Assembly (NCBI GenBank): GCA_025284135.1 | Contig: GCA_025284135.1_3646.1 | Origin: a phage | Strand: one strand, 5' to 3' | Length of the DNA: 64,000 nucleotides | In this document: positions 21,966-39,987 of the stretch, in pieces | How positions within the stretch are numbered: position 1 is the stretch's first letter | How the letters are laid out: each line of letters starts with the position of its first letter | Translations under genes and position numbers: made by a program | Notes under the pieces: model-generated | What the model saw: only the letters and a program-made list of their open reading frames with translations | Databases searched by the model: none | Told to the model about the DNA's origin: nothing

Positions 21966-22682
21966 ATGGCTACGCTTTATAGTGATATATTGATGGACCC
22001 ACAGACAGGCGATTTGGCGATAGACAAAGGTCTTGAGTTGATAGATTCAAACCAGGTGAGTCTGCGCCAGCGCTTGTGGATGAGATTTAATACGTGGAAG
22101 GGGAGCTGGTACTTTGACGAGTTGTTTGGCTTTCCTTATATGGACTTTCTCAGTAAGAAGGTCATGAAGACTGTTCTTGATAACAAGATTATGGAAGTGG
22201 CAAGACAAGAGCCGGATGTGCTAAACATCATAAACTTCCAGTCTACCATGGATCGAAGATCGAGAACATACCAAGCGTTCTTTGAGGTTGTTACCAAAGA
22301 GAACGAGATTGTAAGGCTGGCTTTCGTAGGTCTTGATCAGTTTACCTACCCACAGCCTGATTCTGGGACAACCTCTCTCTGTGATGATGAAGGTTGGATT
22401 AAGTGGGCTAATAAACTGTACTACCTGATCAACTTCAGATTGCCTAGAACCGGAGATGCCACATGGTGGAACCAGTATGCTGGTCCTGAGATGGAAAACC
22501 CGATCCCTGTAGGCTCTCTGTTGACTCAGGATAAAGATCTGCTGATGACCGAGGCAGAACAAACCATTAACCGCAATACCTGGACGCTTGCTCCAGATGA
22601 GCGCGAATACTCTGGTGTTATTGCTACCTCCAATGATGAGGCTATTGCCAACCAGTCTGGTCGTGCTATTGATGTTAACTAA
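21966..22682 (+). CDS. baseplate wedge protein (gp25/gpW-like N-terminal region)
   Basis: N-terminal pattern GDLAIDKGLELIDSNQVSLRQRLWMRFNTWKGSWYFDELFGFPY resembles gp25-like wedge family. Confidence 0.4.
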   Translation: MATLYSDILMDPQTGDLAIDKGLELIDSNQVSLRQRLWMRFNTWKGSWYFDELFGFPYMDFLSKKVMKTVLDNKIMEVARQEPDVLNIINFQSTMDRRSRTYQAFFEVVTKENEIVRLAFVGLDQFTYPQPDSGTTSLCDDEGWIKWANKLYYLINFRLPRTGDATWWNQYAGPEMENPIPVGSLLTQDKDLLMTEAEQTINRNTWTLAPDEREYSGVIATSNDEAIANQSGRAIDVN

Positions 22683-22691
22683 GGAGAAATC

Positions 22692-23360
22692 ATGGCTGTA
22701 GCTTATCCTACAATACCAATTCCAGATCTTGAAGATGCAGAAACAGTCCTGAGTGATGACTTCTTGGTTGTCAACCAGACTGATGGGACAAGAAAGGCTA
22801 AGATTGATGATGTTGTCAACGATCTCAGCATTACTAAAATAGTCTATTTCACAGAGGGTGGTTATCTTAAGAGCAAGAAGGACTTTGCTTATGATCCAGA
22901 GACCAAGCGCTACTACACGTGGAACGGGGACTATCCTAAAATAATCCTCCCAGACTCCACTGTAGAGGGTGCTGGGGGTGTGTCTGCAAATGCCTGGTCT
23001 GTTTTTGGTGAGCTTGCTGCAACTTCTTCTGGCAGAATAGTTGATTACGGATCTATCGGTGGTCAGCTTAATATGGATCTTGAAGTTGCGGATACCTTTA
23101 AGGTTCGACTAACTTCAAATACCACAATCTCTTTTGAAAATCAAACAGAAGGTCTTGAAGGGGTGGCGAGAACTATAACCGTATGCATTACTCAGACCTC
23201 TGGCGGCAACAAAGTCTATTGGCCCGGCAATGTTAAATGGTCCTACGGAAGAGATCCTATCCTAACATTTACAGCTGGTGCAACAGACATTTTCAAGTTG
23301 GAAACCTACGACAACGGGTTAACTTGGTACGGGGCACTGATTATCGCAGGAGCTATCTAA
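22692..23360 (+). CDS. tail fibre/spike N-terminal anchor-domain protein (222 aa)
   Basis: N-terminus is paralogous to the N-terminus of the 25996 fibre. Confidence 0.45.
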   Translation: MAVAYPTIPIPDLEDAETVLSDDFLVVNQTDGTRKAKIDDVVNDLSITKIVYFTEGGYLKSKKDFAYDPETKRYYTWNGDYPKIILPDSTVEGAGGVSANAWSVFGELAATSSGRIVDYGSIGGQLNMDLEVADTFKVRLTSNTTISFENQTEGLEGVARTITVCITQTSGGNKVYWPGNVKWSYGRDPILTFTAGATDIFKLETYDNGLTWYGALIIAGAI

Positions 23361-23361
23361 G

Positions 23362-25959
23362 ATGCGTATTCAACATAACATTGATAACGTATTTCAGATG
23401 ATTGAGGGGCACAGGAAGTGCCTCGATAACAACACAGGTATTACCAACACCCCTACACAAAATAAGCTAGTAAACCCTGATGGTCTTATAGCTGCAGGGT
23501 GGGCAGGTAATAAGATAAATAATGATTGGGCAATGCATGAGTCCCAAGCTGTGTTGATTCTGGGATACATTGAAGCATACAGGGCATCGAAAAGCGATTT
23601 CTATCTGGATAGGGCAAAAGATGCTTGGGAAGCTTACAATAGTCATCTTCTGGGTGCATATGCAGTAGAAAGTAAAATGCAAAGATTGTCCCACTACCCT
23701 CTATCTACAGATGGGGTTCCATCACATGGTGGGTTTAAAGATGTGGTGGTGTCTTTTACCAATGGTAGAGGAAAAATCCCAGCTGGATCTCCGACATGGG
23801 GAGAATACCTGGACAAGGCATTCCAAGCGTATAACGGTGTGTTAGGAAGAAACACGGTAGACTCCGATGTTTACGGTGGCACAGATGCTGACCCAGATTG
23901 GACAACATCCGGATTAAGTTGGTGGGTTGAGTGGTATATAGCATGGGATGGTAACCGCTATTGGGCTAACGGTAGCATAGCCGACAGTGGTCATACGTCT
24001 GTAGAGTTCGGCACAATCCAATTACAAGATAAGGGTGTTACAGGAAGCCACAAGGTAACCTATTGTGTAAGATTACCTCAAGAGCAGGGTGGATCGGTGA
24101 TACCTGCAGGATCCCCTGTAATTGTGAATCCTATAAACGTGGTTGCAGACAATCAAGCCCCAGAGTTGGACGGGGAAGAAATGTGGTGTGACGCTTGTTA
24201 TCAACTCTACACCTTGACAGGTGAGGAAAAGTATTACACCGCGTTTAAACAGTCTTACAACAAGTTGCTTAATTTCAGTGATATAAACGCCTACGACAAA
24301 CTGTTTAGAAAGACCACGTTGATTAAGGCACCATTTACAGATGGTGCTTGTCTTGTTGCAGGAACAGTTCCTGTCATGAGCAGGGATAGTGACGGGTATA
24401 TCAATTTTAGAATGAACGCACGCCAGCCTTGCGAAATAATTCAAAAAGGGACTACATACAAAATAGGCAGAGATGCTGAAATTGTTATGAATTTCGGAGG
24501 AGAAGGGGTTCTGTTCCAGCCACATTTCATCCTTAATGATGGCAACAATAACAAAAAACAGTACAGGATAGGTGTTCCTTTTGGGGGTGCAGAGGTAACA
24601 GAAATAGTTGCCAAGGTTACTGATTTCGTAGAGGTAGTTGGTAAAGACGGTAATCCGTACCTCTTACCTAAAGAGGAAAACATTGCCGTGAGCGGTGGTG
24701 CCAGTGTTAGTATGCAGTACGATACCGACATTTACAACCACTCTGACAACTTCACCCGTTGTAATATAGCAAGGGGCAAAGTAACTTTCAATTTTGGAAG
24801 AGAGATTTCTTTAAACTCAGTAACTTATCGATCAGATGATGAGATGGTAAGGGTCAAATTTCTTGACAAAGACAGGTGGTTATGGTATGCTGATCTATAT
24901 GCCACTAATGGACAATGGATAACAGAAACTCTTACTCTAGGAGATTTCAAACTAGATCCGACACAACCTCATCACACCGAAGAAGAGATTAAACCTTTCT
25001 TTGCTAATCCTAAGGGGCTCACCTCTGTAGATTTCAGCCTAAGCGACAGGCAGATAGGTAATGGCTTGTTTGACCTATATTGCGTCAACACACTGCCACA
25101 ATTTTATATTGCAGATAGAGATGCTTATCTAATCTGGTTTAGCGTATGGATGGCAAGCAAGACAGAATCAACCGCTAGGGTTGGCGATTGCTATGTCAGA
25201 AACTACAAGCAAGGCGCATACAGGCACACACCGGGTGTGTTCCCTGCCGGAAAGGTGATAGATAAGGAAAACTATCTCTTAGAGGAAAAGCCAAATTGGC
25301 CCTACCCTGGCATGCAATATCCAGCAATCTACTGCATGGGTGCAGAAAACATAGATCGCCATAGATTGTCAAATACAATAGGCTTTCTGTATGACGCTCA
25401 AGTCTGGTATAATAATACATTTAAGACAGAGGGTCCAGTTGCCTCGCGTTATGTATGGCAGAGAGGTAATGAAGGGCTGACTGGTTGGTGGGAGATGGTA
25501 GATAACTCTAAACTCCAGTCAAGATCTTTTGTTGCTGCGTGCCGCACAATATATGAGCTCAAGAAACATAAAGAACCTGTTGATGAAAGACTATTCCTGT
25601 TCTGCCAGAAATGGGCATGGTTCCTCAACAGATTCCAGTCATCTCATTCAGGAAATCTGCCCACAGACTTTAACACCTCTGGGGGATATTCTTATCAAGA
25701 CAGAGGAGACAGGATGTGGGTGGTAGGTGAATGGCTTGCAGGTTGCTGCTGGCTAGGTCTGTGCGGGTATTCAGAGACAATACCTCAAATAGATATTGTT
25801 GTGGAAGCCTGTGTGAAGCTACTGCAAAAGCACCACTTCATTAATGGGGATAATATTTTAAACGGCTGCTGGGCAGTTTCTGATCCGGTTGGCTATCACT
25901 CTGGCGAAATCCTTCGCGGTCTGGGCCTTTATGCTCAATACCGTGGATTGTACCTTTAA
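23362..25959 (+). CDS. tailspike-like protein, possible glycanase (865 aa)
   Basis: Starts 1 nt after the anchor ORF stop; large Trp/Tyr-rich protein in the tail-fibre region; enzymatic role is a guess. Confidence 0.35.
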   Translation: MRIQHNIDNVFQMIEGHRKCLDNNTGITNTPTQNKLVNPDGLIAAGWAGNKINNDWAMHESQAVLILGYIEAYRASKSDFYLDRAKDAWEAYNSHLLGAYAVESKMQRLSHYPLSTDGVPSHGGFKDVVVSFTNGRGKIPAGSPTWGEYLDKAFQAYNGVLGRNTVDSDVYGGTDADPDWTTSGLSWWVEWYIAWDGNRYWANGSIADSGHTSVEFGTIQLQDKGVTGSHKVTYCVRLPQEQGGSVIPAGSPVIVNPINVVADNQAPELDGEEMWCDACYQLYTLTGEEKYYTAFKQSYNKLLNFSDINAYDKLFRKTTLIKAPFTDGACLVAGTVPVMSRDSDGYINFRMNARQPCEIIQKGTTYKIGRDAEIVMNFGGEGVLFQPHFILNDGNNNKKQYRIGVPFGGAEVTEIVAKVTDFVEVVGKDGNPYLLPKEENIAVSGGASVSMQYDTDIYNHSDNFTRCNIARGKVTFNFGREISLNSVTYRSDDEMVRVKFLDKDRWLWYADLYATNGQWITETLTLGDFKLDPTQPHHTEEEIKPFFANPKGLTSVDFSLSDRQIGNGLFDLYCVNTLPQFYIADRDAYLIWFSVWMASKTESTARVGDCYVRNYKQGAYRHTPGVFPAGKVIDKENYLLEEKPNWPYPGMQYPAIYCMGAENIDRHRLSNTIGFLYDAQVWYNNTFKTEGPVASRYVWQRGNEGLTGWWEMVDNSKLQSRSFVAACRTIYELKKHKEPVDERLFLFCQKWAWFLNRFQSSHSGNLPTDFNTSGGYSYQDRGDRMWVVGEWLAGCCWLGLCGYSETIPQIDIVVEACVKLLQKHHFINGDNILNGCWAVSDPVGYHSGEILRGLGLYAQYRGLYL

Positions 25960-25965
25960 CATAGG

Positions 25966-25993
25966 GGGGCTGTTTGCCCCCTTTCAGGAGAAA
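25966..25993 (+). terminator. terminator-like hairpin
   Basis: GGGGGC-TGTT-TGCCCCC followed by TTTC. Confidence 0.4.
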
Positions 25994-25995
25994 GA

Positions 25996-28900
25996 ATGGC
26001 TGATATTAAAGTTGTCAGAATTGAATCTCTTCCTGCCACTACCGCAGTGACAGAGGATGATTACCTGGTTGTTCAACAACCAGACCTGACCCGTCGTGTA
26101 AAAATTGGCGATGTTGTCCATGTTGATGGGACTGTTTCTCATGTAATCTCCTTTAAGGAAGGTGGTAAGTTAAACGGCCCAATGGATTTTGCCTACTTCG
26201 AAGAGGAAGACCTCTACCTGCGTTGGAAAGGCGAATTTCCGCACACTGTTCCTGCACTATCTTCACCGTACTCCGATGGCGGGATTACTGACGCTGCATG
26301 GATGGTATATACAGACCCGTCATTAAGGGAGGAGCTGGAATCTACCATTGGCGCATCTATGATCATGACAGCCGAAGGGCAGTCTGTCCAGGATGTAATG
26401 GATGTTACTGTTCAGACAGCTAACGATGCCAAAGCACTTGCACAGCGTGTAGATTTTGGTACAGTGCACACTGTAGGCGATGTTATTCACCTTGATAACT
26501 TTGTTGGCCCTGCAGTTATTGAAGAGGGAAGAACTACCAACTACCCTTCTGCAGCAGCTGGTGAAAAATTTCTGAACGGTGTGGTATCTCGTCGTGATAC
26601 TACAACTGTTGATGGTATTTTCCGTGGCGCTACCTCCGGAGCCATGTATACCATTGCAGTAACCAACGGTGTAGCAACAACAAAAAGAATAGCACTTCGT
26701 GATGAATTTAAACGCCTGGAGGCAAACAACCCAACAAGAACAGTTATCCGTGCTGGAGATGATTTAAACACGGCAGGGTACTTGCAGCTTGATGCAACAG
26801 GCCGTTGGGGTATGTGGAACCAACAAACAGCCTCGTGGCAACCTCTTGCTATAGAGCAAGGCGGTACAGGGGCCAGAGATGCCGCTGGAGTCCGTATCAA
26901 TATCGGGGCTTTCTATAAGCAACGTGCAGCCCTTGAGCCAAATTTCAATATCAATAACTTGACTGGTAATCAGGATGGTGTATACTACCAGCCGATGACT
27001 GCTTATGCAACTGAGGCAAATGGTTATCCTGCAGGTTCTGGTGCTGGTCACTTGATTGTTTGGCAGAACAATGCTAACGGTGGTACAGGTTGTCGTCAGG
27101 AATACTATCCATTCTCTAACGTAGATGTTTGGTATTTGAGAACCTATCAGGCCAATACAAACCAGTGGACTGCATGGCAGCCGATGGTCAGACCTCGTAA
27201 CGATGATACCTTTAGATCGCACATCGGCCTTGGTAAAAACAACTCACCAGCCTTCGGGCACCTTTACTTAGCTCAATACTCTGGAGATGTCAAATCGGCC
27301 TCAGGTATTCTCCATGGAGATAAATATAACACTGATGGTGTTCTTGAGCATGGCTATAGGATCTATTCTGAGGTAAGAAACGACAATAAGGCTTGGTTGA
27401 CAATCCACCTGCACAAAGGTGCAAAAGGATCTGAAACCCATAGATATTTAGGCTTCCGTGAGGATGGGGTCTTAGATTGTCCTAAATATATGCAGGTTGG
27501 TGATCTGAACGGTCAGATGGCAAACTGGGGACTTGGAGAATGGATCCGCAGTTCAGGAGCAGAAAGAGGTTTCTGGGGATCTAAGAAAGCCGCCAAGATG
27601 GTCATCTGGGATGGCGGTATGGACGAGCAAGGTGAAGGAACGCTTGAGTGGGGTGTTTATAACAACCGGAAAGCCAAATGGGAACCACTACCGATAGCTT
27701 GTGGTGGTACCAGTGCCAGGACTGTAGGGGATGCTCAAGCACAATTCAGAATCCCTCTGGCAGCAGGTACTAGACCATATGTAAACCTGCCTAGAACTGC
27801 AGCTATGCAGGACGGTAAGTATTATCCTATTATCGTCAGAACTGACCCCAACTTTGCAGCAACTATCGGGACAGATTTAACCATTGTCACCAGATCTTCT
27901 TCTGGCGGCGACCCAATGAACTGTGCTACACTACAGTGTCACTACAGAACTGGTGGCTGGACAGACAGAGGTGATTCTTTCCAAGGGGTTATTAATTTCT
28001 ACCAAAACGAGAAAGCAATCCTCGGATGTGTATCTCCAACCAGAGGTAAGCAGGAGTATGTTGCATTCTATGTAGAGGCACGTGCATTCCCTGTTACAGT
28101 ATATGCTGGTGCTACTGTAATAGAAGTGTCAACCAGGGAGGTTGATTGGCAGGTAGGCAACGTGACAGGTAACCAAGATGGTGTCAAGTTCTGTGCTCCT
28201 CTGGCATCTGCAGATTTGAGTCTTGCAATCAAAGGTGATGATGTAACAAACACCAGACCTCTGGTTGAGTTCAAAGGAACATCAGGTTTCTACACTGGTG
28301 GTGGAACTATGTGGCACTACCTGGGGACTCCTGAACGCTATGCAGTGATGAGCAAAATGAACATGCCTAAAGTCGAGCTTTGGGCAGACGGTATTGACTA
28401 CATTTGTCCTGGTAGTCAGACCACTAGAAAAGCACTGTTCTCTAACGCAGGGTTCCAAGCTGCATCGGAAGGAACAGAGGATCTGATCAACAACACCTTT
28501 ACCTCTAAATGTGGTAATGGTGCAAGACTGCAAGGCCAGGCAGAGTTCAGATCTACTCCGGAAGCTGGTCAAGTTATCGTTCGCGATGTTGTAGGTACAG
28601 CTCATAAGTTCTACAATTTCAACAAAGACGGCACATTTTTCCCTCCTGGAGGCTATGTTTGCCAGACAGGCGCTGACTGGAACAATCAGTTTGGTAATAC
28701 AAACCCCTCCAAGATAATGGCTGGCAATGTCAACGGGCCGGAAGGTTCGATGGTTGTTGGAGGACTGTCTGTGGCGTTTTCTGGAAACTATGCTTTCCAA
28801 ATGGCTGGTCGCCTTGATCAGTTATACACCAGATCTATCGAGGGTGGTAACCATAGGGCATGGAACAAAGTTATTCAGCACCGTGGTCAAGGTCTGGGGA

Positions 28901-29808
28901 CAGAAGACCTTAATAACTACGATGGTAGCCGTGAAGGTTTCTATCACCAGGGTTCAAACGCTGACGCACTTGTAATAGCTCGTCACTACCCTGCTCCGTA
29001 CGCTGGTACGCTGCTTGTTTACAAAAACACAGCCAACAGACCGCAAGGTTGTGTGCAGGAATACATTACCTATTTTGGTGACAGATATACTCGTGCTGGT
29101 AACTACGTTGGCGATGTCTTTACTTGGGAAGAATGGAGACACGATGCTGGTAAGGGCATTCAGTTAAGACCTAATTACAATTTCGGTGAAAACAGTACTC
29201 AGCTGGAAATTCATGTTGGTGCTAATGGTCTTCCATCCAACGCCGATAACTTACCTACCAACAGTGCTATACTCCATTATTGGGGTAACGGCAGTGCAGG
29301 GACTCGTCCAAACGTGTTAGAGTTTAAGGTTCTTGACGAGTCTCAATCGGCTTATGTATGGCATTGCGGTACCTTGCCGGATAAATCAAGATATCTTTCT
29401 GTAAACGGTGCTGTGAATTGCACATCTGTCAATCAGAGTTCTGACAGAGACCTGAAAGATAACATATCTGTTATTCCTGATGCGTTAGAAGCTATCCGGA
29501 AGATGAAGGGTTATACTTACACTCTTAAAGAGAACGGTATGCCTTATGCAGGTGTTATAGCACAAGAAGTGCTTGAAGCGTTGCCGGAAGCAGTTAGCTC
29601 TTTCGTGCAAAGAAAGGAAATCCCAAACCCTGATCAAGATGGAACTCCTTTGATAACAGAGGAAAGATTCTACAGCGTGGATTACGCAGCCGTAACAGGC
29701 TTGCTTGTCCAGGTTTGCAGGGAACAGGACGATAAAATAACCGCCCTTGAGGAGCAGGTTAAAAAATTGACGGAGGTTGTTACTGGGTTGCAAGAGAAAC
29801 TGAAGTAA
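25996..29808 (+). CDS. tail fibre protein with C-terminal intramolecular chaperone (peptidase S74-type)
   Basis: C-terminal SSDRDLKDNISVIPDALEAIRKMKGYTYTLKENGMPYAGVIAQEV matches the autoproteolytic chaperone signature; N-terminal anchor domain shared with ORF 22692. Confidence 0.8.
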   Translation: MADIKVVRIESLPATTAVTEDDYLVVQQPDLTRRVKIGDVVHVDGTVSHVISFKEGGKLNGPMDFAYFEEEDLYLRWKGEFPHTVPALSSPYSDGGITDAAWMVYTDPSLREELESTIGASMIMTAEGQSVQDVMDVTVQTANDAKALAQRVDFGTVHTVGDVIHLDNFVGPAVIEEGRTTNYPSAAAGEKFLNGVVSRRDTTTVDGIFRGATSGAMYTIAVTNGVATTKRIALRDEFKRLEANNPTRTVIRAGDDLNTAGYLQLDATGRWGMWNQQTASWQPLAIEQGGTGARDAAGVRINIGAFYKQRAALEPNFNINNLTGNQDGVYYQPMTAYATEANGYPAGSGAGHLIVWQNNANGGTGCRQEYYPFSNVDVWYLRTYQANTNQWTAWQPMVRPRNDDTFRSHIGLGKNNSPAFGHLYLAQYSGDVKSASGILHGDKYNTDGVLEHGYRIYSEVRNDNKAWLTIHLHKGAKGSETHRYLGFREDGVLDCPKYMQVGDLNGQMANWGLGEWIRSSGAERGFWGSKKAAKMVIWDGGMDEQGEGTLEWGVYNNRKAKWEPLPIACGGTSARTVGDAQAQFRIPLAAGTRPYVNLPRTAAMQDGKYYPIIVRTDPNFAATIGTDLTIVTRSSSGGDPMNCATLQCHYRTGGWTDRGDSFQGVINFYQNEKAILGCVSPTRGKQEYVAFYVEARAFPVTVYAGATVIEVSTREVDWQVGNVTGNQDGVKFCAPLASADLSLAIKGDDVTNTRPLVEFKGTSGFYTGGGTMWHYLGTPERYAVMSKMNMPKVELWADGIDYICPGSQTTRKALFSNAGFQAASEGTEDLINNTFTSKCGNGARLQGQAEFRSTPEAGQVIVRDVVGTAHKFYNFNKDGTFFPPGGYVCQTGADWNNQFGNTNPSKIMAGNVNGPEGSMVVGGLSVAFSGNYAFQMAGRLDQLYTRSIEGGNHRAWNKVIQHRGQGLGTEDLNNYDGSREGFYHQGSNADALVIARHYPAPYAGTLLVYKNTANRPQGCVQEYITYFGDRYTRAGNYVGDVFTWEEWRHDAGKGIQLRPNYNFGENSTQLEIHVGANGLPSNADNLPTNSAILHYWGNGSAGTRPNVLEFKVLDESQSAYVWHCGTLPDKSRYLSVNGAVNCTSVNQSSDRDLKDNISVIPDALEAIRKMKGYTYTLKENGMPYAGVIAQEVLEALPEAVSSFVQRKEIPNPDQDGTPLITEERFYSVDYAAVTGLLVQVCREQDDKITALEEQVKKLTEVVTGLQEKLK

Positions 29809-29814
29809 CTGTTT

Positions 29815-29842
29815 TGCCCTCGCTTCGGCGGGGGCTTTTTGT
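29815..29842 (+). terminator. rho-independent terminator (CGCTTCGGCG family)
   Basis: GCCCTCGC-TTCG-GCGGGGGC followed by TTTTTGTTTG. Confidence 0.65.
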
Positions 29843-29847
29843 TTGTA

Positions 29848-29876
29848 TTGCGTATTAACTCAAAATCTGGTAAAAT
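29848..29876 (+). promoter_or_regulatory. sigma70-like promoter TTGCGT-N17-TAAAAT (TGG before -10)
   Basis: TGGTAAAAT extended -10-like element 17 nt from a TTG -35. Confidence 0.4.
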
Positions 29877-29907
29877 AACTATCATGATTGTTTAACCTGG
29901 AGGCACA

Positions 29908-30498
29908 ATGTTTTTATGGGAAAGGCCTAGATACCTTCCAGATATTAGATTGGAGCTGCTGGCAGATATTGTTACGTTTAAAAGTCCGTTTACAGGTAAA
30001 ACGCAAAAAGTAACCTATGCCACACCTAACTGGAAAGGCACTTTGACGGTTTCCAATATCAGCGAGTCACAGTTGCTAGAGCTTAAGAGCTTTGTTGATC
30101 AGGTGTATAAAGATGGAAACATCTTTCTTATTAAAACTTACGGTCACTCAGTAACAGCTAATGAGCCAATCGCCCTTGGGCCTACTGGTAACGATGATTT
30201 TTTGAGGACGGTTGGGTGGGAGCCAAACAGAGACATAGCCAGAGTTGGGGATAAAATATCTGTCAATGATGAATTGAAAGTGGTAACAGCTCCAGTGCGT
30301 AGCGATGGTGTTGGGTCTGCTGTTATAAGCATATCTCCAAGACTTAGAAAACCTATTGCCGCAGGGGACACTATGAAGATAATAACTCAATCCCCGAAGG
30401 GTAGGTTTCATATCAGAGATATTTATAAAATTAAGCAAAAAGTCGATGCTATGCAAAAAGGTGATAATATAGTTATCAACTTCTTTGAGGATTTCTAA
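29908..30498 (+). CDS. minor tail protein (tail-tip complex, first of four)
   Basis: Gene order and sizes (196, 184, 142, 1381 aa) resemble lambda/GTA-type tail-tip sets. Confidence 0.4.
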   Translation: MFLWERPRYLPDIRLELLADIVTFKSPFTGKTQKVTYATPNWKGTLTVSNISESQLLELKSFVDQVYKDGNIFLIKTYGHSVTANEPIALGPTGNDDFLRTVGWEPNRDIARVGDKISVNDELKVVTAPVRSDGVGSAVISISPRLRKPIAAGDTMKIITQSPKGRFHIRDIYKIKQKVDAMQKGDNIVINFFEDF

Positions 30499-30499
30499 G

Positions 30500-31051
30500 A
30501 TGATCAGAGCGCCATTAGATAATTTATTTCTTGAAAAGCTGGAGCTTGATGGTGTTGAGATCTTAATTGCTGCAAAGCTGGAGCTACCGACAGGAACTGT
30601 CAGGGTGTGCTCAGGCACTGGTGTTGTAGTAATTGAGGGGCAACATTTTATAGGGATAGGTGGGTCAGCAACATTAACCGCTGTGTCTGAGAAAGATGCC
30701 ACCAACTTCGGATCTGTGGTAGCGACATTGAACGGGTTTGATCCTAAGTATGTGGGTGATCTGCTGAAGACTGAGTATTCTGGTTGTCGTGCCACGTTGT
30801 ACATTACCGCTATGGAGAATGGTCTGCCTGTTACAACTAATGGCTTGTTTGACGGCCTTATAACAGATATGGCTATTCAGACGGGTGAGAATAGCGCTTT
30901 GTCCATATCCATCTCTTCCATCTTCAACAGTTGGTTAAGAGGTTTTCCTTATCGGTACACGGAGGAAAGCCACAGCTCAAGAAACGATAACGACAGATTT
31001 TTTAAATATGTGGATCAGGTGGCGAGCCGCCCGATCATTTGGGAGGTTTAA
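30500..31051 (+). CDS. minor tail protein (start moved to ATG 30500)
   Basis: ATG 30500 has GAGGA RBS; position in four-gene set. Confidence 0.4.
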   Translation: MIRAPLDNLFLEKLELDGVEILIAAKLELPTGTVRVCSGTGVVVIEGQHFIGIGGSATLTAVSEKDATNFGSVVATLNGFDPKYVGDLLKTEYSGCRATLYITAMENGLPVTTNGLFDGLITDMAIQTGENSALSISISSIFNSWLRGFPYRYTEESHSSRNDNDRFFKYVDQVASRPIIWEV

Positions 31052-31476
31052 TGAGCACACATCCTCGTCTAGTGGACTGGCAAGAAAGATTGTGGAAAGT
31101 GTTTGACGAAGAGGCCACCATACCTTTTGAATGGGGATTCCACGATTGTTGCACCTTTGCAGCTAAGTGTGTTGATGCCCAATACGGAACAGATTTTCTT
31201 TCTAACTTCGAAGGAACGTATAAAACAGAGTTGGAAAGCAAAAGATGGTGCATGCTCCGTTTCAAAACCACACACCTGCCTACTATTTTTGATCTCTTTA
31301 TGACTCGGCTGGATACTCCTAAACAGGTTCAGCGTGGAGATATTGTCATTTTCGAAGGTCTGAACGGCCTCACCGCCGGTGTGTTCTGGAACAACCAGAT
31401 TTGGGCGAAAGGTGATAAAGGGGTCTTTATGTTCGATATGAAAGATTCTATCGTTGTTGATGTCTGGAGGTATTAA
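31051..31476 (+). CDS. tail protein with Cys/His motif (NlpC/P60-like) (start moved to ATG 31051)
   Basis: HDCCTF motif plus downstream His; GGGAGG RBS; precedes gpJ-like gene. Confidence 0.45.
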   Translation: MSTHPRLVDWQERLWKVFDEEATIPFEWGFHDCCTFAAKCVDAQYGTDFLSNFEGTYKTELESKRWCMLRFKTTHLPTIFDLFMTRLDTPKQVQRGDIVIFEGLNGLTAGVFWNNQIWAKGDKGVFMFDMKDSIVVDVWRY

Positions 31477-34400
31477 TGCCAATTGCAATGATTGATAACA
31501 TCGTTGCTTCTGCAAGATCTTCAAGTTATGACTGGAACGCATCCAAGGCAGCTCTGGCTGACAGCCTGAACACTGTTACCACCAGAACTCTGGATAAGAT
31601 TTTTGAGGGCAACAAATCTTACAGAAGTCAGCAAGATAGACAAAAGCTTCTCAGATCTTCTGCTGCACCCTGCTCTGTAGTGTATGGAAAGACACGCACA
31701 TCTGGATTGCTTGCGTTTTTGGAGCAGGATAGAGACAAAACCCTCCATTGTGCTATTGTTCTTGCCAATCACCCTCTGGAAGGTATAGAAGATATACTTA
31801 TCGACGGTAATCCGATTTCCTCGTATGGAGATCTGGTATCGTGGGAGCTACATAACGACAGAAAAACATCTGATCCTTTCATGGGTACACACTGCCCATC
31901 ATGGTCACCAGACATGATAGGTAGAGGGATCAGTTGGCTACGTGCCAGCTTCAGGTTTGACCCTAACAAGTTTCCTTTTGGGTTGCCAAACGTTACACTT
32001 GTCAAGGTTGGTAAAAAATGCTATGATCCTCGTATCAGTAAAGAGGTGTATACCAATAACGCGGCCTTGGTGATTCTGGACTATTTAAGAACGTACCTTA
32101 AATGTCCTGACGAAACCATCAACTGGGAGTCCTTCAAGGAGGCTGCCAACATATGCGATGAGGCGGTAAAAAACGCTGACGGAACCAGTGAGCGCCGTTA
32201 CACAATTAATGGCGAGTTCGATATGGATGAGGCTCCAGCAAGTATTATGGCAGAAATGCTGAAAGCTTGTGGAGCAGATCTCAGCTATGTAGCTGGTAAG
32301 TATGGTTTGCTGGTCGGTGCATATTATGGTCCGGCAACAATGACACTGAGTGAGGATTGTGTCTGCGGTGAGGTAAAGATCTATCCGGAAGCCTCATTTG
32401 ACAAAAGATCCAACACAATAACTGGCAGATTCACTAGTCCGACCAAAGGGTATTCTGAAACAGATTTTCCATCAGTGTTTGTCCCAGAGTGGATAGAGAA
32501 GGATGGAGAAAGAAAGATAATCGATATAGACTATCGCTTTGTTACCAGTCCTTATCAAGCTCAACGTGTTTCTGCAATCTTCCTAAGACGTGCCAGAGCT
32601 GGCAGGATTATTGAAGTCACCTGCAATATGCGAGGTTTTAAATTTAAGCCTGGCCGTTACGTTACAATGAATCTTCCAAGTATTGGTATAGTAGGCCAAG
32701 AAATGAGGGTTCTTGAATGGGAGTTCACCAAAAAGGGTGGTGTCAAGGTAAAACTTCGTCAAGATGCTAAAGAGTGGAATGATGCCACAGGGCAACTTCC
32801 GGATTCTGGTGATGTAGATATTCCGATATCTCCATCTGGTGTAGCTCAACCGCAAAACTTCAGATACTCCGTCCTCCAAGCTGGGGAAATAACTCACGGT
32901 GTTCTGGCTTGGGACAACGTTGGGACTTACGCTCAAAATATTGTGCAGGTAAGAAAGAACGGAGAGATTGTTTGGACAGCACAGACAGTTGAGCAGTTTG
33001 TCCGAGTAGAAGGCTTGACCAAGGGGTCATACACAGCAACCGTGGTTGCAACATCTTATAAAGGTGGTGTATCTCCAGAAGCGTACTGCGAGTTTAACAT
33101 TCAGGCACCTGAAGCTCCTGTTTCTGTAGAGGTTAAGCAGGGATACTTTGCTATCACCTTGATTCCACACAGCAGGGATTTAGCAAGTGTAAGCACCCAG
33201 TATGACTTTTGGACATCTGGTATGACAAGGTTGCCCGACACCAGCGATGCAACCGTTACTTCAAACGCCACCCGTATGGGTGTTGGTTCAACTTGGACAT
33301 CCGAAGGTCTGCAGAACGATAAGGTTTATTATTGGTATATTCGAACCACAAACGCTTTTGGTAGCTCTCAGTTTGTAGAGTGTGCTGCACGCTGCTATAC
33401 CTCCATTGAGGATTTGATGCCTCAGATAGATGCTGAATTCAAAAAGACAGAAACTTATAAAGAGTTGATGAGCACTTTGGATTCCTCTATTGAAGAGGTT
33501 GAAAATCGTGTCACAGAACTTAACAGGTACATGGATGGTAGAGTTGACGAGGCTTTTGACCACATGGAAGGTGAGTTCTCTAGAGTAGACAAGCTGTATG
33601 CTCAGTTGGGAGATAGGGTTGGAATATTCATCCAAGAAACCCACGACAACTTCCAGGACGTTAATGGAACGCTTACCACTCTAGATCAGAAACTGGTAGC
33701 CACTCAGAACAAGTTTGCAGATGATCTTTCTAAAGAAAGTGGCAAGCTTGCTTCTCTAATCCAGACCACTAACAAAGCTACAACCGATCTGTTAAATCAG
33801 AAAACTGAAGCTTTGGACGAGAAGATTGTTTCAACCAGGGGTGAGTTGGAAGATGCTTTAGCGCAGGAAAGCTCTGAGCTGAACTCCCTGATTGTATCAA
33901 CCAATAAAACGACTACAGATCTCCTTAATCGGAAAACCGAGGCTTTAGACAATAAGCTGACGGCAACGAAAGGTGAGTTGACCAACAATCTGCAGAATGA
34001 GAGTGCTAAACTATCGTCCTTGATTGAGTCAACCAACAAATCCACCACTGATCTTCTTAATAAGAAAACAGAGGCGTTGGATGAAAAACTGGTTGCTGCA
34101 CAGGGCGAGTTGACTGAGCAGATCGGAGATGTTGAAAAAGGCTATCTGGCTGGTGATAAGAGCCTAGAGGGCAAGTTGAATACTCAAAGATCTGAGTTGG
34201 ATGCGAGCATTCTGAGCACTAACCAGGCCACTGTGGACTTGCTGAACAGAACTTCTGAGACTCTTGACCAGAAGATTAGCCAGACCAACGCCACAGTGTC
34301 CAAAAACTACACCACGCTTGATGGTAAGATAAACACCGCCAAGTCTGATCTTAATACGTTGATTTCTACCACCAACAAGGCCACAACTGACCTGTTGAAT

Positions 34401-35621
34401 CAGAAAACGGCAGCTTTGACTGAGCAGTTAACCACTGCTAAAGGGCAGATTACAACCAACACCAATAATATTACTGGGTTGGACAATAAGCTGACTCAGA
34501 CTAAGAAAGATTTGTCTGCGAATATTTCTGAAACTAATAACGCCACTGTTGATCTGATTAACGGCACAGCGTCAGCTATTCGTCAAGAACTTGCTGTTGC
34601 TAAGCAGGAGATCATTGATGGTGTTGGTGATGTGTCCGAGATCAGGGCTGCAGTAGCTACAACAGCTAAGGCTGTAACCGACTTGGAGGGTAAAGTAAGT
34701 GCTCAATGGGGCACAAAAATACAGGTAGACTCCGCAGGGAATAAATATGTTGCAGGTATCCAGTTGGGGATGGAAGGGTCTGGGGGCCAAGTTCAATCCT
34801 ACTTCATGGTTAGTGCAAACAATTTTGCGGTATACAACCCTGGCAATGGAACAGCAACCCTTGCTTTTGCAATCAAGAACAACCAAGCGTTCTTGAAAGA
34901 CGCTTTTATAGAGAACGGGACGATTTCATCTGCCAAGATCGCACAAGAAATCTCGTCAAACAACTACGATGGCAACGGGTACCATAAATACGGTTGGTAT
35001 ATTAACAAGAACGGGCACGCCCAATTTATGGATGTGTGGGTGAAAGGCAACATCAACGCTAGTTCTGGTAACTTCACAGGGGCAGTTAACGCCACTAGTG
35101 GTACCTTCCGTGGGGATGTTTATGCCAATAATGGTAGCTTTAGAGGCACCATAGATGCAACCGGAGGTACCTTCCGTGGTCGTGTAGAAGCTTCTGTTAT
35201 CCGTGCTAACCAGTTCGAAGGTGCAATTGTTGCGCACAGGACTTATGGGGATTGTGCTCCAGTATATAACTCCCGGCAAAGGGTTTGCCGTTGGAGGTGG
35301 AGATACGTAGATAACGTTTCAGGTCAGGGTAAGAACGTAACATTCTTCTTTAAACTGAATGGTACTCTTGCCAGCTCCCAGCTCAACGTTTGGATAGCCG
35401 GACATCAAATCCTTGCAGGTAAGAAGTACGGAAACGACAACAACGGTATGTGTGCGGTAGGGATAACAGGTCTTGGTGAACAAACCATAGATATTGTTGT
35501 TGAAATCTACACACCATGGTCAACGTCTTCTGTAACAGGGGTCGCAATATCCTGTCCTACTGTTGTGGTAAGCCGTTCTAACTCAAGCTTCCAGGGACCT
35601 TGGAACGAGTCTCACGACTAA
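31476..35621 (+). CDS. central tail fibre / host-specificity protein (gpJ-like N-terminus, coiled-coil repeat shaft, GxFxG C-terminal repeats)
   Basis: N-terminal about 600 aa resemble gpJ-type tail-tip region (HCAIVLANHPLEGIEDILIDGNPI); six or so about 44-aa repeats (TNKATTDLLNQKTEALDEK...); C-terminal SGTFRGDVYANNGSFRGTIDATGGTFRG. Confidence 0.6.
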   Translation: MPIAMIDNIVASARSSSYDWNASKAALADSLNTVTTRTLDKIFEGNKSYRSQQDRQKLLRSSAAPCSVVYGKTRTSGLLAFLEQDRDKTLHCAIVLANHPLEGIEDILIDGNPISSYGDLVSWELHNDRKTSDPFMGTHCPSWSPDMIGRGISWLRASFRFDPNKFPFGLPNVTLVKVGKKCYDPRISKEVYTNNAALVILDYLRTYLKCPDETINWESFKEAANICDEAVKNADGTSERRYTINGEFDMDEAPASIMAEMLKACGADLSYVAGKYGLLVGAYYGPATMTLSEDCVCGEVKIYPEASFDKRSNTITGRFTSPTKGYSETDFPSVFVPEWIEKDGERKIIDIDYRFVTSPYQAQRVSAIFLRRARAGRIIEVTCNMRGFKFKPGRYVTMNLPSIGIVGQEMRVLEWEFTKKGGVKVKLRQDAKEWNDATGQLPDSGDVDIPISPSGVAQPQNFRYSVLQAGEITHGVLAWDNVGTYAQNIVQVRKNGEIVWTAQTVEQFVRVEGLTKGSYTATVVATSYKGGVSPEAYCEFNIQAPEAPVSVEVKQGYFAITLIPHSRDLASVSTQYDFWTSGMTRLPDTSDATVTSNATRMGVGSTWTSEGLQNDKVYYWYIRTTNAFGSSQFVECAARCYTSIEDLMPQIDAEFKKTETYKELMSTLDSSIEEVENRVTELNRYMDGRVDEAFDHMEGEFSRVDKLYAQLGDRVGIFIQETHDNFQDVNGTLTTLDQKLVATQNKFADDLSKESGKLASLIQTTNKATTDLLNQKTEALDEKIVSTRGELEDALAQESSELNSLIVSTNKTTTDLLNRKTEALDNKLTATKGELTNNLQNESAKLSSLIESTNKSTTDLLNKKTEALDEKLVAAQGELTEQIGDVEKGYLAGDKSLEGKLNTQRSELDASILSTNQATVDLLNRTSETLDQKISQTNATVSKNYTTLDGKINTAKSDLNTLISTTNKATTDLLNQKTAALTEQLTTAKGQITTNTNNITGLDNKLTQTKKDLSANISETNNATVDLINGTASAIRQELAVAKQEIIDGVGDVSEIRAAVATTAKAVTDLEGKVSAQWGTKIQVDSAGNKYVAGIQLGMEGSGGQVQSYFMVSANNFAVYNPGNGTATLAFAIKNNQAFLKDAFIENGTISSAKIAQEISSNNYDGNGYHKYGWYINKNGHAQFMDVWVKGNINASSGNFTGAVNATSGTFRGDVYANNGSFRGTIDATGGTFRGRVEASVIRANQFEGAIVAHRTYGDCAPVYNSRQRVCRWRWRYVDNVSGQGKNVTFFFKLNGTLASSQLNVWIAGHQILAGKKYGNDNNGMCAVGITGLGEQTIDIVVEIYTPWSTSSVTGVAISCPTVVVSRSNSSFQGPWNESHD
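33700..34650 (+). repeat. in-frame degenerate tandem repeats (about 132 nt units) encoding coiled-coil shaft of ORF 31476-35621
   Basis: Repeated ACCAACAA(A/G)(G/T)C(C/T)AC(A/T)AC(C/T)GAT CT..T(T/G)AAT..GAAAAC.GA(A/G)GC.TTGGA blocks seen at about 33770, 33900, 34030, 34370. Confidence 0.7.
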
Positions 35622-37228: not shown

Positions 37229-37915
37229 ATGGCAGAGATTAAGTCGGATGTTAACCACATCCACACTCTGCCAGATTTTGTTCAGGGAGGTCTTGACTAC
37301 CTACCTGGAGATTTTCTGGCTGAGAAGGTTAATTTAGTCACATTCTTAACCGTATACCTTAAAAGGTTGGAGGATGTTGATAAGATGCTGGTAGGTTTGG
37401 CTGAAGGAAGATTGCTTAACAATGCCAGCGGAAGATACCTTGACGAAGTTGGTAATCAACTTGGTATTCTTAGGAATGGACTTTCAGATGCTGATTTTCG
37501 TGCCACACTAATTATTCAGCAGGCCGCAGCATCAAGGGGCGGGACTCGCGAAGATGTCATCTCCACCTTGCGACAATTGTTCGGAAGAGACAATTTCGAT
37601 ACGTGGAAAGGAGACAACTTCAGGTTTGACATAAATATTAGAAAAACTTGCTTTGACATATTGCAGTCTATCGATCAGATCTTAGATATGCTACCATTAC
37701 CTTGTCATTTGCGTCTTACAGAATCGCAAGGGCAAGCTTTTGGTTTTGAAGGGGACTCTACAGCTCTTGGCTTCGGATCAGTGTGGGAAGAAAACCAATT
37801 CGGAGTTGGTGGGCTGGCTACTTTGCTATATGTTCCTGACGTAAGACCTGATTGGGACACCACAACCATTTATTGTGAAAGTATTACAGTAAACGCAACT
37901 AGACAGGAGGGTTAA
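37229..37915 (+). CDS. tail-fibre module protein (228 aa)
   Basis: Position; start of next gene overlaps its stop. Confidence 0.35.
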   Translation: MAEIKSDVNHIHTLPDFVQGGLDYLPGDFLAEKVNLVTFLTVYLKRLEDVDKMLVGLAEGRLLNNASGRYLDEVGNQLGILRNGLSDADFRATLIIQQAAASRGGTREDVISTLRQLFGRDNFDTWKGDNFRFDINIRKTCFDILQSIDQILDMLPLPCHLRLTESQGQAFGFEGDSTALGFGSVWEENQFGVGGLATLLYVPDVRPDWDTTTIYCESITVNATRQEG

Positions 37916-39987
37916 TGGCAACAGCTGTTTTTAAACCTTACCGTGATTACTCTACAATGGCTGCACAGTTTCATTACCGAACAGTTCAGGATACTGCCGT
38001 TCCTGGTAGGGATTATAATCATGTTGAGGGCGATGTAACTATCCCAATTGGGGCAACCAGTATTGAAATCCCAGTGGAAATTGTTGACAAATTACCCAAC
38101 AGGTTACCAAGAAGCTTCTTTATGGAGTTTTCATCAAAATCTCAAGGGGTGATGATTGGGACACAAAGGGCAAAATGTACAATAGTTTCAGATGAGAATC
38201 TTGACAGGATATCTTGGGATACTGTTGAGGAGAGAATGTTTCACCCAAGATATTGGGTTACAAATACTCAGCAGACTGAAAGTACCTGTATTGTTGCAGA
38301 TGACAACTGTTGTATTAACCGTTTAGTGTCAAGAACATATGGAGGTATGGCTGGGTGCATTTGGGAAACAGTTGACAAGTATGACCATTTCGGTATTGGG
38401 TTTGATGATCACTATGAGATGAGAAACACCAAGCTTTGGTTCAGAATGTCAATAACCAATGCCAGCAACTTCTCCACCCCTGAAAAGATGATTATGACTG
38501 TAGACCTTGTCGATGGCACAATCATCTATGTTCCTTTAGCTCAATATGCTGTCAGCATCTCAGAGGATAAGAATGTTGCAGAAATTCATATTGATTTTGA
38601 GGACTGCGTCGGGATGGACCAGAACAACAACATGATGGGTGTTGATCCTCGGCAGGTTAGAAGGATTTTAATACCACTCATGCCTAAAGACTGGGTAAGT
38701 AATAGCACAGACCCGAGAACGGAAAATGTAGAGTGTGAGTTGCGCCTAGATTTGCTTCAGCCAGACACAGGCTGGAAAATGATGCAACTTAACAATATTC
38801 AGGTGAGAGAGCACGACGTTGGGATCTGCACCGCATATGACGATATGTGGAACGTATCCCCTTTAAGGGTGTTGAACAATATCAAGCGTCTGGGCTATAC
38901 CGGAACCATAAACCATTATGTTGGTATGAGTCATTATTATGACTACACATGGTCAGGAACTCAATGGTCTATAAACAGAACAGGAGCGCTAAACGCTGCA
39001 GCTTATAAATGGCATGATGATTTTATGTACAATGCCAAACGACATAACTTCGACGTTATGCAATCTGTAAGTTTTGAGCTTTTCAGCGATGCCTGCCCGT
39101 TGGAATGGACCCAAAGAGACTGGAACGATAACTACGCTAAAACAGGGTATACACCTTGTAGCTACCTCCTGTCTCCAACCATTGAAGAGGGTATGAATTT
39201 CCTTACTGCAGTATTTAAGAATTTTGCATCAGCCGCTATGAGAAACAACCTGCCAGTGATTATGCAGGTTGGTGAACCGTGGTGGTGGTACAATACCGAT
39301 ACTCGTAGACCTTGTATTTATGATTACCCTACAAAACAGGCGTTTTATGATGAGACAGGCGAGTATGCATTAGATATTGGGACTATTGACGATCCTAAAA
39401 CTGGCGGTGTTTACGATAAGTATGTAGCATTTTGTCGTGGTAAGCTTGGCGCTCGTATTGCGGCTATTTCAAAGGCAATAAAGGCACACGCTGCATCAGC
39501 TCAGATGACAGCTCTGCTGTTTTTCCCAACCATTATGGAAACCGAGCTTACGCAAAAGCTTAACCTTGCTGACCAATATAAAAAGGAAGCAGGTGCTCTT
39601 GATTTCTTCTGCACCGAGTGCTACGATTGGGTGATGCAGGGAGGTATTGAAAAGGCAAAAGAGTCTGTAAACATACCTATCGTTAAGTTAGGTTGGCAAC
39701 CGTCTGAAATACAATACCTTGCAGGGTTCGTTCCTAGTAAAGAGCTTGCTCCGGTATATGGCTACGACCCAACCAGGAATTACCAAGAATTTTTATGGAG
39801 ATGTATTTGCGGAAACATGGCAACTATAGAGTATAGATACCCTGAGGTAAAACAGTATGTGTGGGCATACCCGCAAGTAATGTCTGACAGCATCACTGTT
39901 ACCGCTAGAGATTCTACCGTGCTTCATATGGGGCAGGTTGCTCTGAAAGGGTATGTAGAAGATGTTGTCCCGCCAGACTTCTCATAA
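37915..39987 (+). CDS. tail-fibre module protein (690 aa), Trp/Tyr-rich, possible enzymatic domain
   Basis: Position; composition; no confident motif. Confidence 0.4.
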   Translation: MATAVFKPYRDYSTMAAQFHYRTVQDTAVPGRDYNHVEGDVTIPIGATSIEIPVEIVDKLPNRLPRSFFMEFSSKSQGVMIGTQRAKCTIVSDENLDRISWDTVEERMFHPRYWVTNTQQTESTCIVADDNCCINRLVSRTYGGMAGCIWETVDKYDHFGIGFDDHYEMRNTKLWFRMSITNASNFSTPEKMIMTVDLVDGTIIYVPLAQYAVSISEDKNVAEIHIDFEDCVGMDQNNNMMGVDPRQVRRILIPLMPKDWVSNSTDPRTENVECELRLDLLQPDTGWKMMQLNNIQVREHDVGICTAYDDMWNVSPLRVLNNIKRLGYTGTINHYVGMSHYYDYTWSGTQWSINRTGALNAAAYKWHDDFMYNAKRHNFDVMQSVSFELFSDACPLEWTQRDWNDNYAKTGYTPCSYLLSPTIEEGMNFLTAVFKNFASAAMRNNLPVIMQVGEPWWWYNTDTRRPCIYDYPTKQAFYDETGEYALDIGTIDDPKTGGVYDKYVAFCRGKLGARIAAISKAIKAHAASAQMTALLFFPTIMETELTQKLNLADQYKKEAGALDFFCTECYDWVMQGGIEKAKESVNIPIVKLGWQPSEIQYLAGFVPSKELAPVYGYDPTRNYQEFLWRCICGNMATIEYRYPEVKQYVWAYPQVMSDSITVTARDSTVLHMGQVALKGYVEDVVPPDFS

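Follow-up and report, generated by a model that had tools for sequence, protein, structure and literature searches.

The genes considered here lie at positions 22,692 to 29,808 of a 64-kb phage sequence (the window, that is, the whole stretch of 64,000 nucleotides that was analysed), which belongs to a Vequintavirus, an rV5-like myophage. By position and length, the three open reading frames (ORFs) of this region are rV5 gp43 (222 amino acids, aa), gp42 (865 aa) and gp41 (1270-1272 aa), and these names are used below; the trio is flanked by the gene of a sheath-initiator-like baseplate protein and by a lambda-like Dit-to-J module. A megablast search with positions 22000-30000 returned 124 phage records, 116 of which cover at least 80% of the query, and the top relatives are BP9 and VB-EcoM-WM (98.1% identity) and EduardKellenberger/Bas59 (97.8%). 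Based on the analysis of this locus (Table 1), we propose that gp43 is probably an adaptor carrying gp42, a large tail protein without an anchor of its own, and that both may be subunits of one receptor-binding appendage.

Table 1. Features of the gp43-gp42-gp41 region, in window coordinates
Feature	Position	Strand	Basis or remark
gp43 homologue, 222 aa, proposed adaptor	22692..23360	+	phrog_7760 full-length, E=2e-119
gp43 N-terminal module, aa 1-105, including PF18668	22692..23006	+	BLASTP against gp41, Pfam, PDB matches
gp43C, C-terminal domain of gp43, aa ~118-222, proposed gp42 docking domain, predicted all-beta	23043..23357	+	matches the C-termini of upstream ORFs
AGGAG Shine-Dalgarno of gp42, within the gp43 3' end	23348..23352	+	read from the sequence; 9 nt 5' of the ATG at 23362
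gp42 homologue, 865 aa, anchorless tail protein with predicted six-hairpin glycosidase-type fold	23362..25959	+	
gp42 conserved N-terminal segment, aa 1-50, candidate adaptor-binding peptide	23362..23511	+	alignment of 15 lineages
gp42 beta-rich insert, aa ~330-615, with carbohydrate-binding-module (CBM)-like module at aa ~480-581	24349..25206	+	AlphaFold2 secondary structure; phrog_23426 at 482-581
gp41 homologue, 1270 aa, long fibre with shared N-terminal anchor	25996..29808	+	phrog_6578 full length
gp41 N-terminal module, aa 1-105, shared with gp43; PF18668 at aa 46-103	25996..26310	+	
gp41 S74 intramolecular chaperone, aa 1149-1270, from SDRDLK	29440..29805	+	PF13884, motif, PDB 6f45

The junction of the first two genes reads ...GCAGGAGCTATC TAA g ATG..., with the gp43 stop codon at 23358-23360, a spacer of 1 nt, and the gp42 start codon at 23362 in frame +1 relative to gp43. 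An earlier reading made from the letters alone (the sequence-only reading) had placed an 865-aa ORF in another frame 1 nt past the stop of the 222-aa ORF, which these coordinates bear out, and had explained the arrangement either by a tailspike of two polypeptides or by one tailspike gene broken by a recent or sequencing frameshift. The single-nucleotide gap and the adjacent frames would suit one tailspike, whether broken by such an indel or joined by programmed +1 frameshifting, as would a few gp42-family clusters (P0029, P0040, P0037 and P0066) that carry an N-terminal extension of ~230-290 aa in a single chain. However, rV5, Bas54 and Bas59, as well as IMG/VR contigs and Logan clusters, have this junction and these ORF lengths: the pair of a 669-nt and a ~2598-nt gene is annotated in rV5, Bas59 and Bas54 and recurs in IMG/VR contigs, and the Logan clusters with these lengths hold 657 (865 aa) and 152 (222 aa) member sequences. 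More than 100 genomes and metagenome assemblies, sequenced independently, have the 222 + 865 aa layout, which rules out a recent or sequencing frameshift. Distant lineages also keep two ORFs, in differing relative frames, and all junction forms found across lineages (TAAgATG, TAATG, ATGA and TAAATG) are coupled stop/starts. Programmed frameshifting is likewise unsupported, as there are only 7 open codons in the gp42 frame before its ATG, which has an AGGAG of its own; by eye, without a motif search, no obvious slippery motif was seen in a 17-nt segment. The extensions of the four long forms aligned with gp43C by hhalign over 18 columns with a probability of 2%, and because of this value they were not counted as gp43C fusions, so that no natural adaptor-gp42 fusion ('Rosetta stone') was counted. 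The comparative data thus contradict a single tailspike gene, which we regard as hardly tenable, and indicate that the separate gp43 and gp42 ORFs are an ancestral, ancient two-gene unit. To describe gp43 as a copy split from its catalytic body, as the sequence-only reading did, is misleading because nothing was split.

gp43 consists of two parts of about equal length. Over the first ~105 residues gp43 and gp41 share 38 of 99 aligned residues in BLASTP (38%, 71.2 bits, E=3e-18), and both contain PF18668 (Tail_spike_N) above the gathering cut-off of 25 bits (gp43 aa 51-105, 41.0 bits; gp41 aa 46-103, 42.1 bits), which confirms the N-terminal domain that had been noticed in the ORFs starting at 22692 and 25996; no further ORF of the window has it at E<0.01. 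Judged by this similarity, the anchors of the two proteins are paralogous. In the PDB, the two N-termini match those of CBA120 TSP1, TSP3 and TSP4 and of G7C gp63.1 (4oj5, 5w6f, 5w6h, 4qnl). The PF18668-type N-termini of G7C gp63.1 and CBA120 TSP1 dock onto a T4 gp10-like domain of another receptor-binding protein (PMC6872550); in a search for a candidate acceptor, no T4 gp10-like domain was detectable by Pfam in gp43 or among the other tail proteins of the window. By homology, gp43 has the N-terminal virion anchor expected of an adaptor protein, given its likeness to gp41 and the PF03906 or PF12571 domains at the N-termini of orthologues. The description of gp43 as an anchor therefore holds for its N-terminus and fails as a description of the whole protein, since half of it is a C-terminal domain, gp43C, that travels with gp42. 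The AlphaFold2 model of gp43 predicts beta strands over residues 116-221 (predicted local distance difference test, pLDDT, ~52-78), and a gp43C hidden Markov model (HMM) matches the adaptors of SE13, phiEa104 and an Aeromonas phage at E values of 3e-45 to 3e-30.

The second protein, gp42, has no match in Pfam or NCBIfam and no sequence match in the PDB; NCBIfam gave nothing for gp43 or gp41 either. It is enriched in Trp and Tyr, as the sequence-only reading had stated, to a modest degree (3.1% and 5.5%, respectively). A profile of the gp42 family gave weak PDB matches (E~2e-3) to the helix hairpins of GH76 mannanases and cellobiose 2-epimerases. The AlphaFold2 model, computed from an alignment of 7 sequences (pLDDT 71.4, predicted template modelling score 0.56), shows paired helices at residues 59-95, 269-319 and 655-860, interrupted by beta inserts at ~100-260 (about 160 aa) and ~330-615 (about 285 aa). 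In this model, the fold of gp42 is an (alpha/alpha)6 barrel of the six-hairpin glycosidase type. An enzymatic body, as had been supposed, is thus favoured as far as a glycosidase-type fold goes, and a classical beta-helix tailspike or depolymerase, in which a parallel right-handed beta-helix follows the N-terminal domain in one chain, was tried as a candidate and rejected, as gp43/gp42 lack that architecture. Searches of Pfam, NCBIfam and PDB profiles yielded no defined CAZy family and no identifiable catalytic acid/base for gp42. Five acidic residues, E60, D270, D678, E732 and E849, are invariant in the family and may be considered candidate catalytic residues. The first 50 residues, in which G16, T25 and G26 are invariant, follow the motif ..IEGH..FL.RNTG.T.D...QHY..N and could bind the adaptor. 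A homologue of the CBM-like module also ends the neighbouring 502-aa fibre of Erwinia phage phiEa104 (40% identity over 174 aa, E=2e-36). The gp42 protein is 97-99.5% identical across ~120 Vequintavirus records, and tblastn finds the family in at least 525 phage records, from phages of Escherichia, Salmonella, Vibrio, Erwinia, Cronobacter, Aeromonas and others.

The evidence that joins the two proteins comes from the distant homologues. A word-indexed protein search was insensitive for both (6 and 4 clusters, to which a profile query added nothing), and the remote gp42 homologues that it did find (26-28% identity) all begin like gp42, without an anchor. Three of them, in a jumbo-phage-like contig, an Erwinia phiEa21-4-like phage and a Burkholderia prophage, are directly preceded by an ORF that is similar to gp43 aa ~120-222 at its C-terminus (E values of 1e-20, 4e-20 and 3e-12) and which otherwise differs, the three ORFs having 153, 244 and 473 aa, the last with a SPRY domain. 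An alignment of gp43C was then built and used to scan IMG/VR, which gave 73 loci; at 43 of them (all strong matches but one, plus L077 and L079) a gp42-family ORF of 915-1169 aa is present, the complete ones with hmmsearch E values below 1e-260. These ORFs, as called by the script, start between -47 and +11 nt relative to the adaptor stop, with one exception (L038, at +171), and gp43C always sits within 11 residues of the adaptor C-terminus. An exhaustive phmmer search with gp42 through 1.84 billion representatives yielded 91 clusters; where the match reaches the gp42 N-terminus, it starts within 20 aa of the protein's own Met in ~28 of 30 clusters, which accordingly have no anchor of their own. 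An anchorless second protein with a conserved N-terminal peptide, a trait of adaptor and branched systems, was thus found both in these clusters and in the 15-lineage alignment. Every distant gp42 homologue examined has an upstream ORF that ends in a gp43C match, and even in myophage, podophage and prophage lineages whose gp42 is only 23-36% identical, the anchorless homologue is still stop-start coupled to a short protein.

Named examples show how different the carriers of gp43C can be. In an Aeromonas T7-like podophage, a 283-aa 'tail fiber' composed of PF03906 (the T7 tail-fibre N-terminus) and gp43C precedes a 'glycosidase superfamily protein', and the pair stands between internal virion protein D and holin; in the Salmonella Rosemountvirus SE13, a 207-aa coiled-coil adaptor precedes a 985-aa protein; in phiEa104, a 244-aa adaptor precedes a 1157-aa gp42 homologue. 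Adaptor N-termini are of the PF18668 type in the phage of the window and in phAPEC8-like phages and of the PF03906 type in the Aeromonas podophage, and other lineages have PF12571 (tail-collar), SPRY, a coiled coil or a 561-aa repeat fibre. Between lineages, adaptor N-termini are 10-22% identical, which is noise level, gp43C 21-54% and gp42 23-58%, and the pairwise identity matrices of gp43C and gp42 are correlated (r=0.80, Mantel p ~5e-4). Unrelated N-termini ahead of homologous gp43C and gp42 mean that recombination has occurred repeatedly between the anchor and gp43C and never between gp43C and gp42. In phiEa104 (L082, 1550-7275), the N-terminal ~150 aa of the adaptor are common to the adjacent 502-aa fibre (31% identity, E=3e-14), and its anchor type differs from that of the window. 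The same design in both phages suggests that the cassette was installed by copying the anchor of a resident fibre ahead of gp43C.

These breakpoints also bear on a different explanation, in which gp43 acts on its own as a short fibre or structural protein of the baseplate, with its C-terminal beta domain as a trimerisation or receptor-binding tip, while gp42 is a co-inherited virion enzyme attached elsewhere or loosely and the synteny reflects co-regulation. It would agree with the fact that the PHROG families bearing a gp43C-type domain are annotated merely as 'tail fiber protein', and it draws further on the essentiality data and on the gp43C-like domains before unrelated genes that are described below. 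However, the breakpoints separate the adaptor N-terminus from gp43C and in no case gp43C from gp42, and gp42 homologues have no recognisable anchor in ~28 of 30 clusters. Moreover, in the annotated stretch of the Aeromonas podophage from internal virion protein D to holin, the protein with T7 anchor and gp43C and the gp42 homologue are the only fibre-type genes, which leaves no other obvious route for the attachment of gp42. We therefore consider an autonomous gp43 unlikely.

Total proteomics of the rV5 virion detected gp41, gp42 and gp43 (PMC3606486), so that the 865-aa protein is, on this evidence, virion-associated, as the sequence-only reading required. This result argues as well against the view that gp42 serves mainly as a large factor for gp43 assembly or caps gp43 transiently, like Tfa/gpU or the 'chaperone caps' of Alteromonas phages, instead of being a functional receptor-binding or enzymatic subunit. 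Like a chaperone gene, gp42 comes directly after a fibre gene, with translational coupling between the two, and its disruption is tolerated on K-12 plates. But the proteins of this family have 865-1169 aa, with a full predicted six-hairpin glycosidase fold and CBM-like modules, far above the size of known fibre chaperones, and gp42 is not essential, though a folding factor of the essential gp43 should be essential. An assembly role is in our view quite improbable.

Based on these findings, we propose, with a probability of roughly 0.65, that gp43 is an adaptor for the anchorless gp42 and that the two form one receptor-binding appendage. This is the two-polypeptide tailspike of the sequence-only reading, which gains support from the glycosidase-type fold, the ~28 of 30 anchorless clusters, the constant gp43C-bearing upstream protein and the rV5 proteomics. 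First, gp43 would be a short stalk whose N-terminal ~105 aa, a copy of the gp41 anchor, fix it to the baseplate periphery, and whose ~100-aa beta domain gp43C would serve as the docking platform. Upon this platform, gp42 would be seated, probably through its conserved N-terminal ~50 residues, and would present its (alpha/alpha)6 glycosidase-type domain and its beta and CBM-like modules to a conserved host surface glycan; we infer the contact between gp43C and gp42, as well as its stoichiometry, the catalytic activity and the substrate. The two proteins would be made as separate, translationally coupled polypeptides, and gp43C together with gp42 may be an old mobile cassette, installed in different morphotypes by fusing a phage's own fibre anchor before gp43C.

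Several points weigh against this model. The HIDEN-SEQ transposon screen of Bas54, published as a preprint, rates the gp43 homologue 'Essential' (7 of 47 TA sites hit) and the gp42 and gp41 homologues 'Intermediate' (94 of 189 sites for gp42, with two of the insertions lying 29 and 62 nt inside the gene, and 154 of 238 sites for gp41); in liquid competition on K-12, gp43 had 0 of 47 sites, gp42 was sparse and gp41 very sparse. On clinical strains, fibre genes were conditionally essential in this screen. A pure carrier should not matter more than its cargo, and gp43 must for this reason have an additional role, probably a further structural one in the baseplate, unless its C-terminal domain is needed for its own trimerisation. 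For gp42, Pfam and NCBIfam gave no match that would assign it to a CAZy family or mark its catalytic residues. (Alpha/alpha)6 enzymes are usually monomers, which the model does not reconcile with a presumably trimeric stalk. Finally, weaker gp43C-like domains found in IMG/VR (L045, L048-L076) end small fibre proteins whose downstream genes are not gp42 but encode LamG-like or propeller-repeat proteins or ~150-aa assembly-like proteins.

These weaker domains share the motif ...TWP.N[VI]KW..G..P.L......D...F.T.DGG..W.G, and at three loci (L051, L055 and L069) a downstream ORF of ~610-740 aa has a motif like this one and, behind it in the chain, RCC1-like repeats. The gp43C-like domain may thus be a general junction domain, on statistics that are weak. 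In its widest form, which we put forward tentatively and at less than even odds, the proposal is that gp43C could be a portable docking domain of a kind not recognised before and different from the T4 gp10-like one, which together with an anchorless six-hairpin glycosidase would make up a plug-in cassette moved among myophages, podophages and temperate phages by fusion to a local anchor; the rV5-like adaptor would in addition be a load-bearing, essential element of the baseplate, and the wider superfamily maybe a general junction for LamG-like, propeller and RCC1 modules. No description of the gp43C adaptor domain or of its pairing with gp42 was found in the literature searched. Two observations on unusual family members are recorded here in their own right: the N-terminal extensions of P0029, P0040, P0037 and P0066 end in a short F.T.D.G.TW.G-like motif without significant similarity to gp43C, and P0069 (293 aa) combines, oddly, an N-terminal fragment of gp42 with a gp43C-like domain at its C-terminus.

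By analogy, gp43/gp42 would work like the known adaptor and branched systems (K1-5 gp37, G7C, CBA120 and KP32-type) and would differ from them in its cargo and, as far as Pfam shows, in its docking domain. In the podophages K1-5, K1E and SP6, the gp37 adapter holds tailspikes that have no anchor and attach by short N-terminal peptides (Latka et al. 2019, PMC6872550). The proposed pair resembles this design in that gp43 is short, virion-anchored and without a receptor-binding body of its own and gp42 is anchorless with a conserved N-terminal segment, and the Aeromonas T7-like adaptor even bears a T7-type tail-fibre N-terminal domain. However, the docking module of K1-5, K1E and SP6 is T4 gp10-like and holds two spikes of beta-helix or beta-propeller type, whereas gp43/gp42, whose interaction is proposed, would have one cargo, with an (alpha/alpha)6 barrel, and no detectable gp10-like domain. 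With the branched complexes of CBA120 (TSP1-4) and G7C (gp66/gp63.1), in which several fibres are built from proteins with common attachment modules, gp43 and gp41 share the PF18668 domain that is also N-terminal in TSP1, TSP3, TSP4 and gp63.1; in those spikes PF18668 is followed by a catalytic beta-helix in one chain, whereas the gp43 chain continues after it with a docking-type domain of ~100 aa and then ends at a stop codon.

In the T-even phages S16 and T2, a separately encoded adhesin, gp38, is attached at the tip of the gp37 fibre. As proposed here for gp42, the distal module is a separate polypeptide, encoded directly downstream and seated on the C-terminal tip of the fibre, although gp38 is a ~260-aa adhesin for outer-membrane proteins and gp42 an 865-aa protein of predicted glycosidase fold on the very short stalk gp43, with no sequence relationship between the two systems. 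Adhesins of the gp38 type are mentioned in the cryo-electron microscopy (cryo-EM) paper on Bas54 (PMC12143355). With the six-hairpin families GH8, GH48, GH76, GH88, GH105 and the AGE-type epimerases, gp42 shares 8-13% identity and no family HMM match, and unlike these enzymes its barrel is broken by the ~160-aa and 285-aa beta inserts.

The third gene, gp41, is the variable member of the trio, with rV5 and many relatives aligning to it in two pieces at 95-96% coverage; next to the conserved gp42, this variability fits gp42 acting on a conserved and gp41 on a variable glycan. That the second fibre ends in an S74-type chaperone, as previously suggested, was corroborated by PF13884 at aa 1149-1200 (50.9 bits against a cut-off of 22, E=1.9e-13). 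The sequence SDRDLKDNIS begins at aa 1149 (nt 29440), from which 122 residues remain to the C-terminus that would be removed by autoproteolysis after trimerisation, and gp41 aa 1137-1263 match PDB 6f45, the distal subunit of the S16 long tail fibre. The Ser...Lys motif that marks the start of S74 domains is S1149-D-R-D-L-K1154, at the domain start, and we take its dyad spacing to be like that of the K1F endosialidase. In the cryo-EM study of Bas54, an S74-bearing fibre, RBP11, was fitted at the baseplate wedge, its peptidase domain being without density (PMC12143355); this fibre probably corresponds to the gp41 homologue. Neither gp43 nor gp42 nor gp41 is treated in the cryo-EM papers on phi92 and Bas63.

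Further observations concern the surroundings of the locus and its database records. Within the baseplate and fibre cluster of this contractile-tailed phage, positions 29908-35621 encode a siphovirus-type tail-tip module made up of a Dit-like protein of 196 aa (phrog_1302), a 188-aa protein, a DUF6950 protein of 145 aa and a lambda-J-like protein of 1381 aa (PF09327/PF24489). Its homologues bas54_0028-0031 are non-essential in HIDEN-SEQ, except bas54_0029, which is 'Intermediate'. At 37915-39987, a 690-aa fibre homologous to rV5 gp34 matches the N4 non-contractile tail sheath families PF23844 and PF23845 (E=4e-80) and contains Calx-beta; the literature discusses a deacetylase fibre that binds the N4-glycan receptor (NGR), and this protein is probably that fibre. 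About 18-23 GenBank records of 'Campylobacter phage' with Campylobacter jejuni as host (MG065646, MG065647, MG065661, MG065662, MG065666 and others) have a locus 93-99% identical to that of E. coli rV5-like or phAPEC8-like phages, and these host labels look doubtful.

In conclusion, this work describes an unusual tail protein family with a predicted (alpha/alpha)6 barrel, putatively enzymatic, in at least 525 phage genomes, and a small partner that may attach it to the virion. As the fibre densities in the cryo-EM structures of phi92 and of Bas49/Bas54 are partly unassigned, gp43 and gp42 as one two-subunit appendage would be a concrete candidate piece for them. The compact adaptor domain could be used to graft gp42, and possibly other cargo, onto other phage chassis for host-range engineering. 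An 'essential' adaptor beside a dispensable cargo points, in addition, to a hitherto unrecognised structural role of gp43 in the baseplate.

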